From Escherichia coli (GTDB taxonomy: Bacteria > Pseudomonadota > Gammaproteobacteria > Enterobacterales > Enterobacteriaceae), in assembly GCF_050920415.1 (NCBI RefSeq), contig NZ_CP169309.1: 64,000 bases of DNA. One strand, written 5' to 3'. Of the stretch, positions 24,970-43,044 are shown piece by piece. Both the position numbers and the translations under genes were made by a program. Every line of letters starts with the position of its first letter. The first letter of the stretch is position 1. The notes beneath the pieces are model-generated. The model did no database searches and was not told the DNA's origin. It was given only the letters and a program-made list of their open reading frames with translations.

Positions 24970-25055
24970 AGCTGCTTTCCTGATGCAAAAACGAGGCTAG
25001 TTTACCGTATCTGTGGGGGGATGGCTTGTAGTTATGACGACAGGAAGAGTTTGTA

Positions 25056-25089
25056 GAAACGCAAAAAGGCCCAGTCTTCCGACTGGGCC
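25056..25089 (-). terminator. rRNA operon terminator (single hairpin, T1/T2-like)
   Basis: Minus strand: GGCCCAGTCGGAAGACTGGGCC followed by TTTTTGCGTTTC, about 15 nt after the 5S 3' end. Confidence 0.75.
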
Positions 25090-25103
25090 TTCTGCTTAAT
25101 TTG

Positions 25104-25223
25104 ATGCCTGGCAGTTCCCTACTCTCGCATGGGGAGACCCCACACTACCATCGGCGCTACGGCGTTTCACTTCTGAGTTCGGCATGGGGTCAGGTGGGAC
25201 CACCGCGCTAAGGCCGCCAGGCA
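25104..25223 (-). rRNA. rrfB: 5S ribosomal RNA (120 nt)
   Basis: Minus strand begins TGCCTGGCGGCC and ends CTGCCAGGCAT; full match to the E. coli 5S sequence as recalled. Confidence 0.95.
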
Positions 25224-25316: not shown

Positions 25317-28218
<2,902 letters not shown>

Positions 28219-28412
28219 TCACAACCCGAAAATGTTTCTTTCGATTCATCATCGTGTTGCGAAAATTTGAGAGACTCACGAACAACTTTCGTTGTTCAGT
28301 GTTTCAATTTTCAGCTTGATCCAGATTTTTAAAGAGCAAATATCTTAAACATGACTCGTAAGTCATCTTTAACGATATCAAGGTCGGCGACTTTCACTCA
28401 CAAACCAGCAAG

Positions 28413-28488
28413 TGGCGTCCCCTAGGGGATTCGAACCCCTGTTACCGCCGTGAAAGGGCGGTGTCCTGGGCCTCTAGACGAAGGGGAC
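28413..28488 (-). tRNA. gltT: tRNA-Glu (anticodon UUC) in the 16S-23S spacer
   Basis: Minus-strand sequence GTCCCCTTCGTCTAGAGGCCCAGGACACCGCCCTTTCACGGCGG...GACGCCA. Confidence 0.93.
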
Positions 28489-28658
28489 ACGAAAATTGCT
28501 TATCACGCGCTGCGTGATATTTTCGTGTAGGGTGAGCTTTCATTAACAGAAAGCGAACGGCCTTATTCTCTTCAGCCTCACTCCCAACGCGTAAACGCCT
28601 TGCTATTCACTTTTCATCGACAATCTGTGTGAGCACTGCAAAGAACAGTTCTTTAAGG

Positions 28659-30200
<1,542 letters not shown>

Positions 30201-30369
30201 AAAAGTTTGATGCTCAAAGAATTAAACTTCGTAATAAATTACGTGTTCACTCTTGAGACTTGGTATTCATTTTTCGTCTTGCGACGTTAAGAATCCGTAT
30301 CTTCGAGTGCCCACACAGATTGTCTGATAAATTGTTAAAGAGCAGTGCCGCTTCGCTTTTTCTCAGCGG

Positions 30370-30535
30370 CGCGGGGTGTGCATGATACGCTTTCCCGCTC
30401 CAGAGTCAAGCATTTTTTTGCTTTTCTCTGTCGAGATTCTCAGGAGAATCTCGCTGACCCGGCGGCGTGTTTGCCGTTGTTCCGTGTCAGTGGTGGCGCA
30501 TTATAGGGAGTTATTCCGGCCTGACAAGAGGAAAT
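30370..30535 (-). promoter_or_regulatory. rRNA operon tandem promoters P1 and P2
   Basis: Minus strand: P1 TTGTCAGG...TATAATGCGCCACCACTGACACGG (-35 at 30522-30527, -10 at 30500-30505); P2 about 120 nt downstream with TTGACT -35. Confidence 0.8.
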
Positions 30536-30572
30536 TTAAAATAATTTTCCGACCGCGCAACATTCAACCAAA

Positions 30573-31430
30573 TCAGTCTAAAACTGCCAGTTTTTCGAGC
30601 GTTTCGAAGCCGTAGCGCTGTAAAACGGGCAATAATTGTTCAGCTTCTGGCGTCATTGCCATACAAAAGGCAATATTCGCATCGGCGGATTTTGCATCCG
30701 GGGCTTCATGTTCTAACAACCATGCCGTTCGGCGAGCAATCGCTGCGCCAGAATCCACCAGCCGTGTTCCCTCTGGCAGCACTTGTAACAGTTCTTCTTG
30801 TAGTAGAGGGAAGTGGGTACACCCCAGAACAACGGTATCTGGTGGCTCTTTCATTCTTAACCACGGGCGCAAGATACGCTTTAGTGCATCCAGAGAAACA
30901 TCTTCGCCATGCAGCTTCGCTTCAGCCAACTCAACCATCTCTGCCGAGCCCAGCATTTCTATCTGGCATTCATTAGCGAAACGCGCGATCAGCTCATGAG
31001 TATAAGAACGTTTAACTGTTCCGCGGGTTGCCAGTAATCCGACAATGCCATTAGCTGTCAGACGTGCCGCTGGCTTAATCGCCGGCACGACACCAACAAC
31101 CGGGAAGTCGAACTTTTCGCGTAATGCAGGAAGTGAAACGGTACTGGCGGTGTTGCAAGCGACCACTGCCAGCGCAAGGGGATAGCGTTCTTGCACTGCG
31201 GTGACAATTGCCACCACTCGCTCAACAATAAACTCTTCGCTTTTTTCGCCATACGGGAAAGCGACGTTATCGAAAGCATAAATGTAATGGAGATCCGGTA
31301 AGAGATGCCGGATCTCGTCATAGACCGACAACCCACCGACGCCGGAGTCAAACACCAGCACGGTGGGACGTGGTTCAGAAGGTGTAGCTGCCAGACAAGG
31401 TGTATTCCCGTCCTGCAGTTTGGTAGCCAT
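30573..31430 (-). CDS. murI: Glutamate racemase MurI, 285 aa
   Basis: ORF track 30573..31442; start set to MATKLQDGN; 5' end overlaps the btuB 3' end. Confidence 0.93.
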
Positions 31431-33587: not shown

Positions 33588-34688
33588 ATGACCCCCGAAC
33601 ACCTTCCAACAGAACAGTATGAAGCGCAGTTAGCCGAAAAAGTGGTACGTTTGCAAAGTATGATGGCGCCGTTTTCTGACCTGGTTCCGGAAGTGTTTCG
33701 CTCGCCGGTCAGTCATTACCGGATGCGTGCGGAGTTCCGCATCTGGCACGATGGCGATGACCTGTACCACATTATTTTTGATCAACAAACCAAAAGCCGC
33801 ATCCGTGTAGATAGCTTCCCCGCCGCCAGTGAACTTATCAACCAGTTGATGACGGCGATGATTACGGGTGTGCGTAATAATCCCGTTCTGCGCCACAAGC
33901 TATTCCAGATTGATTACCTCACCACGCTGAGCAATCAGGCGGTGGTTTCCCTGCTGTACCATAAAAAGCTGGATGACGAATGGCGTCAGCAGGCGGAAGC
34001 TTTGCGCGATGCGTTGCGCGCACAAAATTTAAATGTGCATCTGATTGGTCGGGCAACGAAAACCAAAATCGCGCTGGATCAAGATTACATCGACGAACGT
34101 CTGCCGGTCGCAGGGAAAGAGATGATCTACCGTCAGGTAGAAAACAGCTTTACCCAGCCGAACGCGGCGATGAATATTCAGATGCTGGAATGGGCGCTGG
34201 ACGTCACCAAAGGCTCAAAAGGCGATTTACTGGAGCTGTACTGCGGCAACGGTAACTTCTCATTAGCCCTGGCGCGCAATTTTGATCGGGTATTAGCCAC
34301 CGAAATCGCCAAGCCTTCGGTCGCTGCCGCGCAATACAACATTGCCGCTAACCATATTGATAACGTCCAAATTATTCGTATGGCGGCAGAAGAATTTACT
34401 CAGGCGATGAATGGTGTGCGCGAGTTTAATCGCCTGCAAGGGATCGACTTGAAGAGTTATCAGTGCGAAACCATTTTTGTCGACCCACCGCGCAGCGGTC
34501 TGGACAGTGAAACCGAGAAAATGGTGCAGGCGTATCCACGTATTCTGTATATCTCCTGCAATCCGGAAACGTTATGCAAGAATCTGGAAACATTAAGCCA
34601 GACGCACAAGGTTGAACGTCTGGCTCTGTTTGATCAGTTCCCCTACACGCACCATATGGAGTGCGGCGTATTACTGACCGCGAAGTAA
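33588..34688 (+). CDS. trmA: tRNA/tmRNA (uracil-C5)-methyltransferase TrmA, 366 aa
   Basis: ORF track; recognisable sequence. Confidence 0.95.
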
Positions 34689-38578: not shown

Positions 38579-38620
38579 TTTATTCTACAGGCCCACAGCA
38601 AGAGAGCCTGATAGTAACAG

Positions 38621-39904
38621 TTACTCAATCCGATCTTTGACAATAAAGAAGTAACACAGCGCCCCGGTGAACGTCACACAGGCCGCGATAACCAGCGCCA
38701 GATTAAACGAGTGCGTGGTATCCACTACCCAACCGGTTACGATCGGAGCAAAGGAAGCAAAAACAAAACTGCCAAAGTTTTGAATCCCGGCGATGGAAGC
38801 CACTTTTGTTTCTGACACCATCACCTGCACCAGTCCCCATGCAGATGTTCCCGCGAAATGCACGCAGAACAGCGCCATTGAGATAAACGCTACAGCCTGG
38901 GCTGGCGAGGAGGATTGCACGACCAGCAACGTGCCTAATGCCGACATCATCAAACCGCAAACAATAGCCGTTTTACGCGTCTTCGCCAGGTCGTAGCCTT
39001 TTTTCGCCAGCCGATCGACAACAATACCGTTAACCCACATCCCGACCGCCGCCGCGAGGAAAGGAATCGCCGCCACCCAACCGGTTTTCGCCAGACTGAA
39101 GCCTTGCTCGGCTTGTAAATAACCGGGTAACCACGCGATGTAGAGCCAACCGGTATAATTGACGCCAGAGAAACCTAAAATCATCCCCCAGGTTGTCCGA
39201 TGCTTAAACAGCGCCAGCCACTCGCTAAATTGTAATTGTGGACGCGGTTTAACCGGCGCGGAGAGATAGGTCCGTTCTTCGTCGGTCAGGACAAACTGCG
39301 CCCGGTTGCGATACCACGCGTACCAACAGATCCCAACCAGAATCCCCGCCACGCCGATGATGACGAACATTGCCCGCCAGCCCCATGCCAGCTGCATCAA
39401 TACAAGAGCAGGAGGCGCAATAGCCTGACCGATAACGGTAGATGAGTTAAAAATCCCCAGCGCCGTGCCGCGTTCTTTTTGCGCATACCAGTCGGTGATC
39501 GACTTTACTCCCGCAGGCATAAATGGCGCTTCGCCAATACCCAGACCGATACGCATTAAAATAAAGTGGCTAAAAGAATTAACCATTCCTGTTAATGCCT
39601 GCATTAATGACCAGAATATTAAGCCTGCGCCTAAAACTATTCGTGGGCCAAAGCGGTCTAGCAAAATACCGGAAGGGAGTTGTGAAAAACCATAAGACAG
39701 AGAAAATGCAGAAAGCAAAACGCCAAATTCTGTCGCCGATAATCCTAACTCGCCACGAATCGCTTCGCCTGCCACGCTCAATGACGAACGGTCGAGGAAA
39801 TTAACGATCCCCGCCATAAATAATAAAACCAGCGTTACTGTCTGAATACGACGAATCCGTTGCGGTTTATTACCCGCAACACTGGTTGACACATCAACGT
39901 CCAT
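38621..39904 (-). CDS. MFS transporter, anion:cation symporter (ACS) family; putative sugar-acid (hexonate/hexuronate-type) permease, 427 aa
   Basis: ORF track; 12-TM hydrophobicity pattern; N-terminal NFLDR motif and overall similarity to DgoT/ExuT/GudP-type permeases; not at this locus in K-12 as I recall it. Confidence 0.8.
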   Translation of the reverse strand: MDVDVSTSVAGNKPQRIRRIQTVTLVLLFMAGIVNFLDRSSLSVAGEAIRGELGLSATEFGVLLSAFSLSYGFSQLPSGILLDRFGPRIVLGAGLIFWSLMQALTGMVNSFSHFILMRIGLGIGEAPFMPAGVKSITDWYAQKERGTALGIFNSSTVIGQAIAPPALVLMQLAWGWRAMFVIIGVAGILVGICWYAWYRNRAQFVLTDEERTYLSAPVKPRPQLQFSEWLALFKHRTTWGMILGFSGVNYTGWLYIAWLPGYLQAEQGFSLAKTGWVAAIPFLAAAVGMWVNGIVVDRLAKKGYDLAKTRKTAIVCGLMMSALGTLLVVQSSSPAQAVAFISMALFCVHFAGTSAWGLVQVMVSETKVASIAGIQNFGSFVFASFAPIVTGWVVDTTHSFNLALVIAACVTFTGALCYFFIVKDRIE

Positions 39905-39970
39905 TTTTAGCTCCTTGAGCGGAATTAATCGATTTGCTGACTATTCAGAAAATAATTAAGCGAACCGTTA

Positions 39971-41185
39971 TTACCAGTTCCACAATGTGCCATCTTCCAG
40001 TCGTGCGACGGGGAGATACGCCGGGTCATACGGATATTTCGCCGCCAGTTTCTCATCGAAAGAAATACCCAGCCCCGGTTCATCGCCTGGGTGCATATAA
40101 CCTTCATCGAAGCGCCAGCTGTGCGGGAAGACTTCAAGCATTTGTTCGGAATAGCCCATGTACTCCTGAACGCCAAAGTTTGGCACCCAGAGGTCAAAAT
40201 GCAGCGCCGCCGCATGACAAACAGGCGATAAATCTGAAGGGCCATGCGAACCGGTACGTACCTGATAAAGCGATGCAAAATCGGCAATCCGTCGCATCCC
40301 GGTAATGCCGCCTGCATGGGTAATCGTCGTGCGAATATAGTCAATCAGCTGCTCTTCGATTAACTGCTTGCAGTCCCAGATACTGTTAAACACTTCACCG
40401 ACCGCAATCGGCGTCACAGTATGCTGGCGAATCAGACGAAAACATTCCTGGTTCTCGGCAGGCGTCGGATCTTCCATCCAGAACAGGCGGTAATCCTCAA
40501 TGCTCTTCCCAAAGCGCGCCGCTTCGATAGGAGTCAGGCGATGGTGCATGTCATGCAACAGATGTTCGTTAAAACCGAACTTATTACGCACCGCTTCAAA
40601 TAACTTCGGTGTAAAATCGAGATACTTTTCTGAAGACCACAACTGCTCTTCCGGCCACAGGCCTTTGGTTGCCGGTTCATACGCCAGTCCTTTGCCCTTC
40701 GCCAGGCCATAAGTGGTTTGCATACCCGGTACACCGCACTGCACACGAATCGCCTTAAAGCCCATCAGCTGGTGCTTTGCATAGTCTTCAAGGACTTCAT
40801 CAATCGTGCGCCCGGTGGTGTGGCAATAAACCATCACGCCTTCACGAGAAGCCCCACCAAGCAGTTGATACAATGGCATATTTGCCGCTTTGGCTTTGAT
40901 ATCCCACAACGCCATATCAATGGCAGAAATGGCCGACATCGTGACGGGGCCACGTCGCCAGTAAGCACCTTTATAAAAGAATTGCCAGATATCTTCGATA
41001 CGGCTGGCATCGCGGCCAATTAATTGTGGACAAAGATGATCTTTCAGATAAGAAGCGACCGACAATTCGCGACCATTTAATGTGGCATCTCCCAATCCAC
41101 AAAGTCCGCTTGCAGTGGTTATTTTAAGCGTAACGAAATTACGTCTTGGGCAAGTAACAAAAACATCTGCAGCAATAATTTTCAT
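39971..41185 (-). CDS. Enolase-superfamily dehydratase, D-mannonate dehydratase (ManD)/RspA subgroup, 404 aa
   Basis: ORF track 39971..41245; start moved to ATG at 41185-41183 ([13 protein letters not shown]), preceded by RBS CAGGAG; hallmark RspA/ManD blocks [54 protein letters not shown]. Confidence 0.85.
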
Positions 41186-41670
41186 TATTGCAATCTCCTG
41201 TGTTGTAAATAGATGCTTCAAACTTAATTTTACGCCTACTACCATACAAGAGAGAAAGAGCGATTATTCAACCGTGATCACATTAAAAATAAAAATTTCC
41301 GCCGAGGAGAAAAAACACCCTCAAAAACCACCTGAATAATTAACCATTATCGTTAAAACAACACGTTAAATAATCACATAACAAACTCCATTAATCATTA
41401 AATATGAGCGCAGCAATAGAAATGAATTATATTCAATTAATTAAAATATGTATTGATTGATGTATTGAAAATATGATTTTCATGGGGAGAGTGAAGGTAA
41501 AGAAGACGCAAGAATAAAAAGGAATATGACAAATAATAGTTCTGGTTGGGCGTTAAATTTAAGGTCACCAGAATGCTGACAAATTTCTGCCTGAGGCAGT
41601 CCGCCTACGTAGTGTCGCTACTTTATAGGCGTGGTAAGCTCCCCATTTTCAGGGGAGCAATATAAACCAA
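41186..41670 (-). promoter_or_regulatory. AT-rich upstream region of the accessory operon (putative promoter)
   Basis: About 485 nt ORF-free, locally very AT-rich (e.g. 41340-41560), between the argH stop and the dehydratase start; no promoter elements assigned. Confidence 0.4.
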
Positions 41671-43044
41671 TTACCCCAACCGCGCCTGCGCAAAAGCAAT
41701 CGCCTGCGCCACCTGCTGCGGGGAGACGCCGCCTTTTGCCGCACGCTTGTCGAGGCACGATTGCAGCGACAGAATCGGATAGACATCTTCGCCAATCACC
41801 TCGCTGAATTTCTGCAACTCACTGAGCGGCAGTTCTTCCAGCGGTTTGCCCTGACGAATGGCTTCCACCACCGCTTCACCAACAATATGGTGCGCCTCGC
41901 GGAACGGCACACCTTTCGCCACCAGGTAATCCGCCAGTTCAGTGGCGTTCGCATACCCCTGCTGCGCCGCTTCCTGGCAACGTGGGCGTTTCACCTGAAT
42001 CCCGTCCAGCACCAGCGCCGCCATATGCAGGCAGTCCAGCCAGGTATCGAGCGCATCGAACAGACCTTCTTTGTCTTCCTGCATATCTTTGTTATAGGCC
42101 AACGGCAGACCTTTCAGCGTCATCATCATGCCGGTCAACGCGCCCTGAACACGACCGCATTTACCGCGAATCAACTCCAGCGCATCCGGGTTTTTCTTCT
42201 GCGGCATTAATGATGAACCGGAAGTAACACGATCAGAAAGCTCCACAAAACCCGCTTCGCCGGTGTTAAAGAAAATCAGATCTTCGGCAAAACGCGACAA
42301 ATGCACCATACCGATAGCGGCGGCAGATAGCAGTTCCAGCACGTGGTCGCGGTCAGAAACGCTGTCGAGACTGTTACGGGTCGCCGAGGCAAAGCCCAGC
42401 CAGCCTGCTAACTGTTCACGGTCGATTTCATAGGCCGTTCCCGCCAGGGCGCCACAGCCTAGCGGGCTGACATCCAGACGCTTAAGCGCATCCTGCAAAC
42501 GGCTTTCATCACGCGCCAGCATCTCAACATAGGCCAGGCACCAGTGCGCAAACGTCACCGGCTGGGCGCGTTGCAGGTGAGTGTAACCAGGCATTACCGC
42601 GTCCTGATTATTCTGCGCGGTTTCCACCAGCGCCGATTGTAACTGTCGGTTAGCCGTCAGCAACTCGCTAACGGTATCCTTGCACCACAGTTTCAGGTCA
42701 GTCGCTACCTGATCATTACGGCTACGCCCGGTATGCAGTTTTTTGCCTAACTGGCCCACTTTGTCGATCAGTTTGCCTTCCACCCAGCTATGGATATCTT
42801 CGGCGTCGCTTTCAAGAATTTGTTGTGGCCTGGCGCGAACATCTTCCAGCAGCACATTGAGCGCCTCTTCCAGTTGCACCTGTTCTTCTGCGGTTAACAC
42901 GCCTACCGTTACCAGCGCTTTGGACCAGGCCACAGAGCCAACAATATCCTGCTCCGCCAGACGGTAATCAAAGCGCAGTGAGTCGTTGAATTGTTTAAAC
43001 CGTTGATCTGCTGCCTGGGTAAAACGCCCGCCCCAAAGTGCCAT
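41671..43044 (-). CDS. argH: Argininosuccinate lyase ArgH, 457 aa
   Basis: ORF track; recognisable sequence. Confidence 0.96.

Follow-up and report, generated by a model that had tools for sequence, protein, structure and literature searches.

A rare lineage allele of the rrnB P1-P2 promoter region in an Escherichia coli chromosome, probably spread by gene conversion among rrn operons

The segment at positions 30370-30535 of the E. coli DNA analysed here (a stretch of 64,000 nucleotides, called the window below) contains on its minus strand both promoters of the rrnB operon, P1 and P2. We propose, with a probability of about 0.9, that it is a lineage allele of the standard rrnB P1-P2 promoter, which has been spread by gene conversion and most likely works as it does in K-12. 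The promoter itself is already known, and the case is an ordinary one. According to this proposal, ordinary point mutation would have given rise, in a small E. coli lineage, to a natural variant of the P2 core and of the spacer between P1 and P2, which would have been spread and reshuffled through gene conversion between the four operons of rrnA/B/C/G type. P1, with its UP element, near-consensus hexamers, 16-bp spacer and G+C-rich discriminator, would drive most rRNA synthesis in fast growth, with P2, 118 bp downstream, providing a basal and slow-growth component. The boxB and boxA elements would then load the antitermination complex (for these rrn antitermination elements, see also PMC10250234).

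The window is part of an E. coli chromosome, in an orientation reversed with respect to K-12. Rfam and ARAGORN together place a complete rrn operon on its minus strand, consisting of 16S rRNA (28659-30200), tRNA-Glu (28413-28488), 23S rRNA (25317-28218) and 5S rRNA (25106-25221). Synteny with an annotated sister genome and with K-12 puts murI directly upstream of the operon, with btuB also on that side, and murB, birA, coaA and thrU-tyrU-glyT-thrT-tufB downstream of it. Given these neighbours, the operon is rrnB. The promoter region is directly 5′ of the 16S-tRNA-23S-5S operon at the rrnB locus, which is the location of the rrnA/B/C/G subtype, and, judged by its place and its motifs, what is present here is the usual E. 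coli rrnB tandem promoter, P1-P2, with its leader, of that subtype. A scan of 30200-30700 for terminator-like sites returned none, and the promoter region has no match in Rfam at the gathering threshold.

A consensus scan identifies exactly two sigma-70-type sites in the region, namely P1 and P2. The P1 core (30500..30527, minus strand) has a -35 hexamer TTGTCA at 30527-30522, a 16-bp spacer and a -10 hexamer TATAAT at 30505-30500, all as in K-12, and scores 11 of 12 consensus matches in window and K-12 alike. Upstream of it is the A+T-rich UP element (30528..30550, minus strand, placed by alignment to K-12), which spans -59 to -38 from the P1 start and has a single difference from K-12, an A>G change in its outermost base, 30550 (-59). 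This G is also found in rrnA, rrnB and rrnC of MFDS1022581, the E. coli genome with the best match to the promoter region, and in other Escherichia species. Downstream, the G+C-rich discriminator GCGCCACC and the start A (30491..30499, minus strand) align to K-12 with full identity; we take 30491 to be the P1 start, after the work on the start of K-12 rrnB P1, and the UP numbering follows from it. For nt 1-88 of the P1 transcript, RNA folding predicts a pair of adjoining hairpins, one of nt 2-38 (30454..30490, minus strand) and the other of nt 39-60 (30432..30453, minus strand), the latter with the sequence CGAGAUUCU / CCUG / AGAAUCUCG and a hypervariable stem.

Between the second hairpin and P2, the alignments mark out an A-rich, UP-like stretch, ACAGAGAAAAGCAAAAAAATGC (30410..30431, minus strand); UP function at P2 is known from published work. 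The P2 core (30382..30409, minus strand) is composed of a -35 hexamer TTGACT at 30409-30404, a 16-bp spacer and a -10 hexamer TATCAT at 30387-30382, with 10 of 12 consensus matches in both window and K-12. The P1-to-P2 hexamer distance is 118 bp in the window and 119 bp in K-12, so that P2 has the make-up of the rrnA/B/C/G subtype: about 120 bp downstream, TTGACT, 16 bp, a TATTAT-like -10 and GCACACC. The P2 discriminator and start region, GCACACC (about 30381-30374), is followed by what we take, from the rrn antitermination literature, to be the boxB stem-loop (30370-30347) and boxA, TGCTCTTTAACAA (30344-30332), all on the minus strand and all as in K-12 rrnB, with 30332-30381 identical in the alignment. 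The 16S leader (30201..30331, minus strand), which runs to the mature 16S 5′ end at 30200, has two differences from K-12 rrnB.

When aligned to the MG1655 rrnB sequence (upstream of rrsB, b3968), the window differs at 16 positions in 30150-30640, over 411 bp compared: 30211, 30236, 30384, 30391, 30400, 30415, 30419, 30425, 30431, 30433, 30436, 30449, 30451, 30550, 30577 and 30615. Eleven of them are within 30370-30535, and all eleven are inside 30384-30451. The initial annotation, made from the letters alone, had reported several substitutions in this segment relative to K-12 rrnB, and the alignment bears it out: the minus strand contains ...CTCTGGAGCGGGAAAGCGTATCATGC... exactly as quoted there, and the K-12 string set against it, ...CTCTGTAGCGGGAAGGCGTATTATGC..., is correct for rrnB of MG1655. 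Its further statements, that the P1 core is intact and that the P2 region and the leader downstream are altered, agree with what we find. There is no difference from K-12 rrnB in 30452-30549, which covers the P1 core, the UP element from -58 and nt 1-39 of the P1 transcript; the changes at P2 affect the -10, two spacer bases and the upstream A-tract; and the two leader positions are 30236 and 30211.

At P2, the T>C change at 30384 falls on the fourth base of the -10 hexamer (-9) and converts TATTAT to TATCAT, and the spacer variants are 30391 G>A, at about -16, and 30400 T>G, at about -25. The changes at 30415, 30419 and 30425 leave the A-tract 5′ of P2 1 bp shorter and rearranged, from AGAGAAAGCAAAAATAAATGC to AGAGAAAAGCAAAAAAATGC. 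Five positions (30431, 30433, 30436, 30449 and 30451) are in or adjoin the inverted repeat between P1 and P2; in the blastn alignment 30431 only borders the second hairpin stem, and the other four are stem bases. Positions 30577 and 30615 are upstream of -59, around the 3′ end of murI; it is upstream of P1 that the rrnA/B/C/G subtype has its Fis sites, control by ppGpp/DksA and iNTP being a further mark of the subtype. In the leader, 30211 G>A gives the base present in K-12 rrnC, rrnD, rrnE, rrnG and rrnH, and 30236 C>T, at -36 relative to mature 16S, affects a loop base of the small palindrome CGTAAT-T[C/T]-ATTACG. To sum the comparison by element, the window shares with K-12 rrnB the locus, the P1 core, the UP element from -58, the discriminator, nt 1-38 of the P1 transcript, the P2 -35, the P2 discriminator, boxB, boxA, the hexamer match counts and the 16-bp spacers, whereas it differs in the P2 -10, two P2 spacer bases, the A-tract, four hairpin-stem bases, the UP base at -59, two leader bases and two murI bases.

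Window and K-12 diverge by 2.55% over the 48.9 kb aligned, a mean of 1.78 differences per 70-bp window, against which the 70 bp of 30384-30453 hold 11. The aligned part has only seven such clusters, this one among them, and all seven are in non-coding or rrn-flanking DNA. The clustering exceeds the background but is typical of the least constrained non-coding segments.

The promoter regions of all seven K-12 rrn operons were aligned with that of the window, as the initial annotation had suggested, and it is identical to none of them. That the allele is a copy of a K-12 operon is ruled out by the same count (0/7). It has 15-16 differences from K-12 rrnA, rrnB and rrnC, and 9 from rrnG, the closest K-12 operon; rrnD, rrnE and rrnH have a different P1-P2 promoter type. 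The similarity to K-12 rrnG, which is downstream of clpB, extends over the right inverted-repeat arm and the greater part of the A-tract: the two have in common the right arm GAGAATCTC, AGAGAAAAGC and the overall spacer length. Unlike the window, however, K-12 rrnG has a left arm GGGG, CTCAAC in place of CTCGAC, AAAGAAATG in its A-tract, a K-12-type P2 (T, G, TATTAT) and other sequence upstream of P1. The A at 30391 is the state of K-12 rrnC. The window sequence is therefore a mosaic of states that segregate among the K-12 paralogs, together with a few that are absent from K-12.

Strain divergence, one of the two origins offered by the initial annotation, is well supported by a search of 5,426 complete E. 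coli genomes. None of them matches the 411-bp promoter region exactly, the best being MFDS1022581 with one mismatch, and the 106-bp variable segment is exact in that genome only (106/106). About 20 further genomes are at least 95% identical over the 106-bp segment, in the range of 95-99%. Likewise, an exact copy of the 62-bp haplotype of the P2 core, which combines G at -25 with A at -16 and C at -9, is present in 1 of the 5,426. MFDS1022581 is 99.955% identical to the whole 64-kb window and matches its unique flank of 5,961 bp at 100%, where the identity to K-12 is 97.5%. A graded series of rrnB alleles links that of the window to common E. coli forms, with 7 differences from the window in AR_0077 (a representative of the 98.3%-identity class, in the lower half of the promoter-region match list), 6 in N96, 5 in 2017-02-2CC, 3 in Z0117EC0005 and 1 in MFDS1022581.

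The altered -10 is not itself rare. Exact copies of a 49-mer in which TATCAT and GGGAAAGCG are linked are present in 509 of the 5,426 genomes, and spot checks place TATCAT at rrnG (type strain ATCC 11775 and an O157 strain), rrnA (PAR) and rrnC (RM14723), always linked to A at -16 and on differing spacer backgrounds. The P2 allele GGGAAAGCGTATCATGC of these same operons is identical to the window throughout the right half of P2, where both have TATCAT and the -16 A, but has T at -25 and other hairpin and A-tract versions, and occurs in operons other than rrnB. TATCAT is thus a common polymorphism, one that passes from operon to operon, and the only rare thing is its combination with the -25 G. 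The spacer and P2 of the window are, as far as these comparisons tell, a rare natural allele of a small E. coli lineage.

The second origin suggested by the initial annotation was homogenisation with another rrn operon, and here MFDS1022581 is informative. Its rrnA, rrnC, rrnE and rrnG operons were located, and the four promoter regions of rrnA/B/C/G type were aligned with their K-12 counterparts. All four (rrnA, rrnB, rrnC and rrnG) have the window-type, GAGATTCTCCTGAGAATCTCGACAGAGAAAAGCAAAAAAATG-type spacer, with private changes in rrnC (TTCTTC) and rrnG (GAGG and two extra A), and TATCAT in rrnB only, rrnA, rrnC and rrnG having TATTAT. K-12 rrnA, rrnB and rrnC share another spacer. Paralogs within a genome differ by 1-6 bases in MFDS1022581 (A/B/C/G) and by 0-3 in K-12 (A/B/C), and orthologs between MFDS1022581 and K-12 differ by 15-16 (rrnB), 14 (rrnA), 15 (rrnC) and 7 (rrnG). 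In addition, the same variant is found at different operons according to the strain: the window spacer allele is at rrnA, adjacent to hemG, in N96, and at rrnG, adjacent to clpB, in 2017-02-2CC. Since paralogs are much closer than orthologs and the allele occupies different operons, gene conversion among the rrn paralogs is indicated, and from these sister genomes we infer concerted evolution of the spacer among the rrnA/B/C/G operons. Gene conversion among rrn operons is a known property (for example, PMC6002687). The suggestion of homogenisation therefore stands as far as exchange between paralogs is concerned; as to its source, the allele is not a copy of any K-12 operon but a mosaic, the right half of which resembles rrnG and other Escherichia.

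What would these changes do to the promoter? Since P1 is unchanged, it is expected to act as K-12 rrnB P1, and should behave accordingly in this strain. For P2, the -35 hexamer, the 16-bp spacer length and the G+C-rich discriminator underlie rrn-type regulation, and they are unchanged here. The changed -10 base replaces one non-consensus base by another, the consensus being A, and an A-tract abutting the P2 -35 is retained in the window. We infer from this that promoter strength and regulation are essentially unchanged. In published work, the K-12 rrn promoter regions are heterogeneous and somewhat differently regulated (PMC4696680), and P1 and P2 both respond to iNTP, P2 being the less responsive to growth rate (PMC3113569). 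The initial annotation had added a concern that single changes in this region affect growth-rate control, for which we find no support at the level of sequence: hexamer counts, 16-bp spacers and G+C-rich discriminators are as in K-12, and the changed P2 positions are naturally polymorphic. At the same time, the T:A to C:G change inside the -10 could have a modest quantitative effect, as could the altered A-tract upstream of P2, with its 1-bp change of phasing; the kinetics of the open complex or the contacts of alpha-CTD might then be measurably different.

It is in this connection that an adaptive explanation has to be weighed, according to which the P2 changes alter the strength of rrnB P2, or its response to growth rate or ppGpp, in this lineage and so give operon-specific rRNA expression. 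It would account for the concentration of differences on P2 and the DNA upstream of it (11 in 70 bp against the mean of 1.78), for a -10 change that is private to rrnB in MFDS1022581 and the window, with TATTAT kept in the other MFDS1022581 operons, and for a full P2 haplotype found in a single one of the 5,426 genomes; population frequency is in any case no proof that the combination is neutral. It would also fit the differential regulation that is reported among K-12 rrn promoters (PMC4696680). Nevertheless, we consider such retuning unlikely, because P2 has as many consensus matches as in K-12, a spacer of equal length and the same discriminator, the K-12 base at the altered -10 position is already non-consensus, and TATCAT occurs in 509 genomes at various operons. 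Moreover, all four bases are found at -25 when strains and genera are compared, the A at -16 is the majority or ancestral state, and other non-coding stretches of the window are as divergent as this one. A lineage allele that functions as K-12 rrnB does is the reading that we retain.

The polarity of the changes was assessed with a degenerate P2 pattern scanned against GTDB representatives, one genome per species. Only 8 stretches were returned, because most draft genomes lack assembled rrn promoters; they are enough for polarity and too few for statistics. They come from E. albertii, several non-coli Escherichia lineages and Intestinirhabdus alba, and all have A at -16 and TATTAT, with T at -25 (A in Intestinirhabdus). 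All of the Escherichia matches have an A-tract of the AGAGAAAAGCAAAAAA(A)TGC type, and most have the right arm GAGAATCTC(G/A)AC; one non-coli Escherichia representative has exactly the window sequence between the right arm and the P2 -35, both included. The K-12 rrnA/B/C spacer GAGAACTCCGGCAGAGAAAGCAAAAATAAATGC and the G at -16 are absent from all other Escherichia representatives recovered. By parsimony, the A-tract, right arm and -16 A of the window would be ancestral-like, and its -25 G, -10 C and GAGA left arm would have arisen within its own lineage. As for the K-12 rrnA/B/C spacer, it is probably a derived form within E. coli, and with K-12 derived, part of the apparent substitution in the window would lie on the K-12 side. 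In the Yersinia consensus (Rfam RF02849, Ysr197), the base at -25, G in the window, is C, and that at -16 is A, so that these positions vary freely across genera.

This resemblance to other species raises the question of whether the spacer allele entered E. coli by recombination from another Escherichia, as the identity of the right arm and A-tract, GAGAATCTCGACAGAGAAAAGCAAAAAAATGC, with one operon of a non-coli Escherichia representative might indicate. We regard such introgression as very unlikely: no outgroup representative joins the left arm of the window, GAGATTCTC, to GAGAATCTCGACAGAGAAAAGCAAAAAAATGC, or has the -25 G or TATCAT; intermediate alleles exist within E. coli; and the unique flanks are ordinary E. 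coli, with the identities to K-12 and MFDS1022581 given above. Retention of an ancestral allele is the simpler account of the resemblance. The textbook K-12 rrnB P1-P2 sequence is one allele among several, and on our preferred reading gene conversion reshuffles the P1-P2 spacer and P2 core from one rrn operon to another, P1 remaining invariant; caution is due in taking K-12 rrnB P2 as "the" E. coli sequence. The natural series of alleles (T, A or G at -25, G or A at -16, TATTAT or TATCAT, and the A-tract and hairpin versions) would be suited to testing what P2 and the hairpin need.

Window and MFDS1022581 differ at 29 positions over the 64 kb, and 25 of these are in the rrnB operon (26619-30236), several as 1-nt indels; position 30236 is the sole one in the promoter region, MFDS1022581 having no T there. 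Although this concentration, together with a 30236 base unique to the window relative to MFDS1022581, is what a sequencing, assembly or polishing artefact of the repeated rrn region might leave, such an error is extremely improbable, given that the 106-bp segment is exact in the independent MFDS1022581 assembly and within 1-3 bases in more than 12 other genomes, at rrnB, rrnA and rrnG, that the 30236 T form occurs in some operon of 17 of the 5,426 genomes, E. coli 042 included, and that the indels are in MFDS1022581, which has frameshifted genes, and not evidently in the window. The 16S gene of the window rrnB is identical to that of MFDS1022581 rrnE (1542/1542) and differs from that of MFDS1022581 rrnB at 12 positions (V1 nt 79-93, V6 nt 1002-1038, 1-nt indels), a mismatch which points to a recent conversion between paralogs or to a difference in assembly or polishing. 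Several genes of the MFDS1022581 record, for example tatB, are frameshifted, which hints at assembly errors in it.

Within the leader, it is the stem between the two promoters that is hypervariable. The z-scores of the fold are -5.8 for the window, -4.8 for K-12 rrnB, -2.6 for K-12 rrnG and -5.6 for E. albertii. In an alignment of 14 distinct Escherichia alleles, the first hairpin has 12 pairs, 11 of them invariant, and is 100% paired. The second has 9 pairs, with 96% of cells paired and 2 pairs changed on both sides, and nearly all of the variation in nt 1-60 is in its stem. Pair 41-58 occurs as A-U, G-C and G-U, pair 43-56 as G-U, A-U and G-C, and pair 40-59 as G-C and A-U, with no A.C mismatch in the second stem across the 14 alleles. 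Its covariation score is 0.128, against 0.099 +/- 0.011 in shuffles (reached in 1 of 500), and slid controls are only 27-46% paired. The two left-arm G>A changes of the window convert G-U pairs to A-U, double changes in the second stem occur in E. albertii, and in Intestinirhabdus alba the second hairpin is absent.

The maintenance of pairing in a hypervariable stem suggests selection for pairing, in a small sample of related sequences and for a structure derived from those same sequences. It is tempting to propose that the 9-bp hairpin of nt 39-60 is a selected element of rrnA/B/C/G-type leaders, either as RNA or as a DNA palindrome, but we put this forward only as a tentative idea, with the odds rather against it. 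If it were so, the hairpin could act on the 5′ end of P1 transcripts, by stabilising or folding it, or could affect RNA polymerase traffic across P2 through pausing or occlusion. In the searchable literature, we found no description of a hairpin between P1 and P2.

The Rfam family RF02849 (Ysr197, "Yersinia sRNA 197"), the only family to match the promoter region below the gathering threshold, deserves a comment of its own. The model aligns end to end with 30322-30574 of the window, minus strand, and contains recognisable P1 -10, P2 -35/-10 and boxA sequences; the match scores 78.5 bits (E = 7e-19) where the gathering score is 167, so this region is homologous but not a member by the Rfam criterion, and the alignment is poor in the hairpin region. 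Ysr197 is annotated as an sRNA gene, whereas its counterpart in the window is promoter DNA and pre-rRNA leader. As far as the alignment goes, Ysr197 looks like the Yersinia counterpart of the rrn promoter and leader region.

Some other features of the window-K-12 alignment may be recorded. It is interrupted at 38581-41671, and the part at 40400-41670, which is flanked by oxyR/OxyS and argH, carries in the annotation of MFDS1022581 manD and a pseudogene of an MFS transporter, K-12 having neither there. The 70-bp stretches most divergent from K-12 are at 25030-25101, with 15 differences, and at 33965-34034, with 14. The former is just 3′ of the 5S gene and corresponds to the rrnB terminator region, and the latter, at about 33.97 kb, is beyond the cobalamin riboswitch of btuB and probably within trmA.
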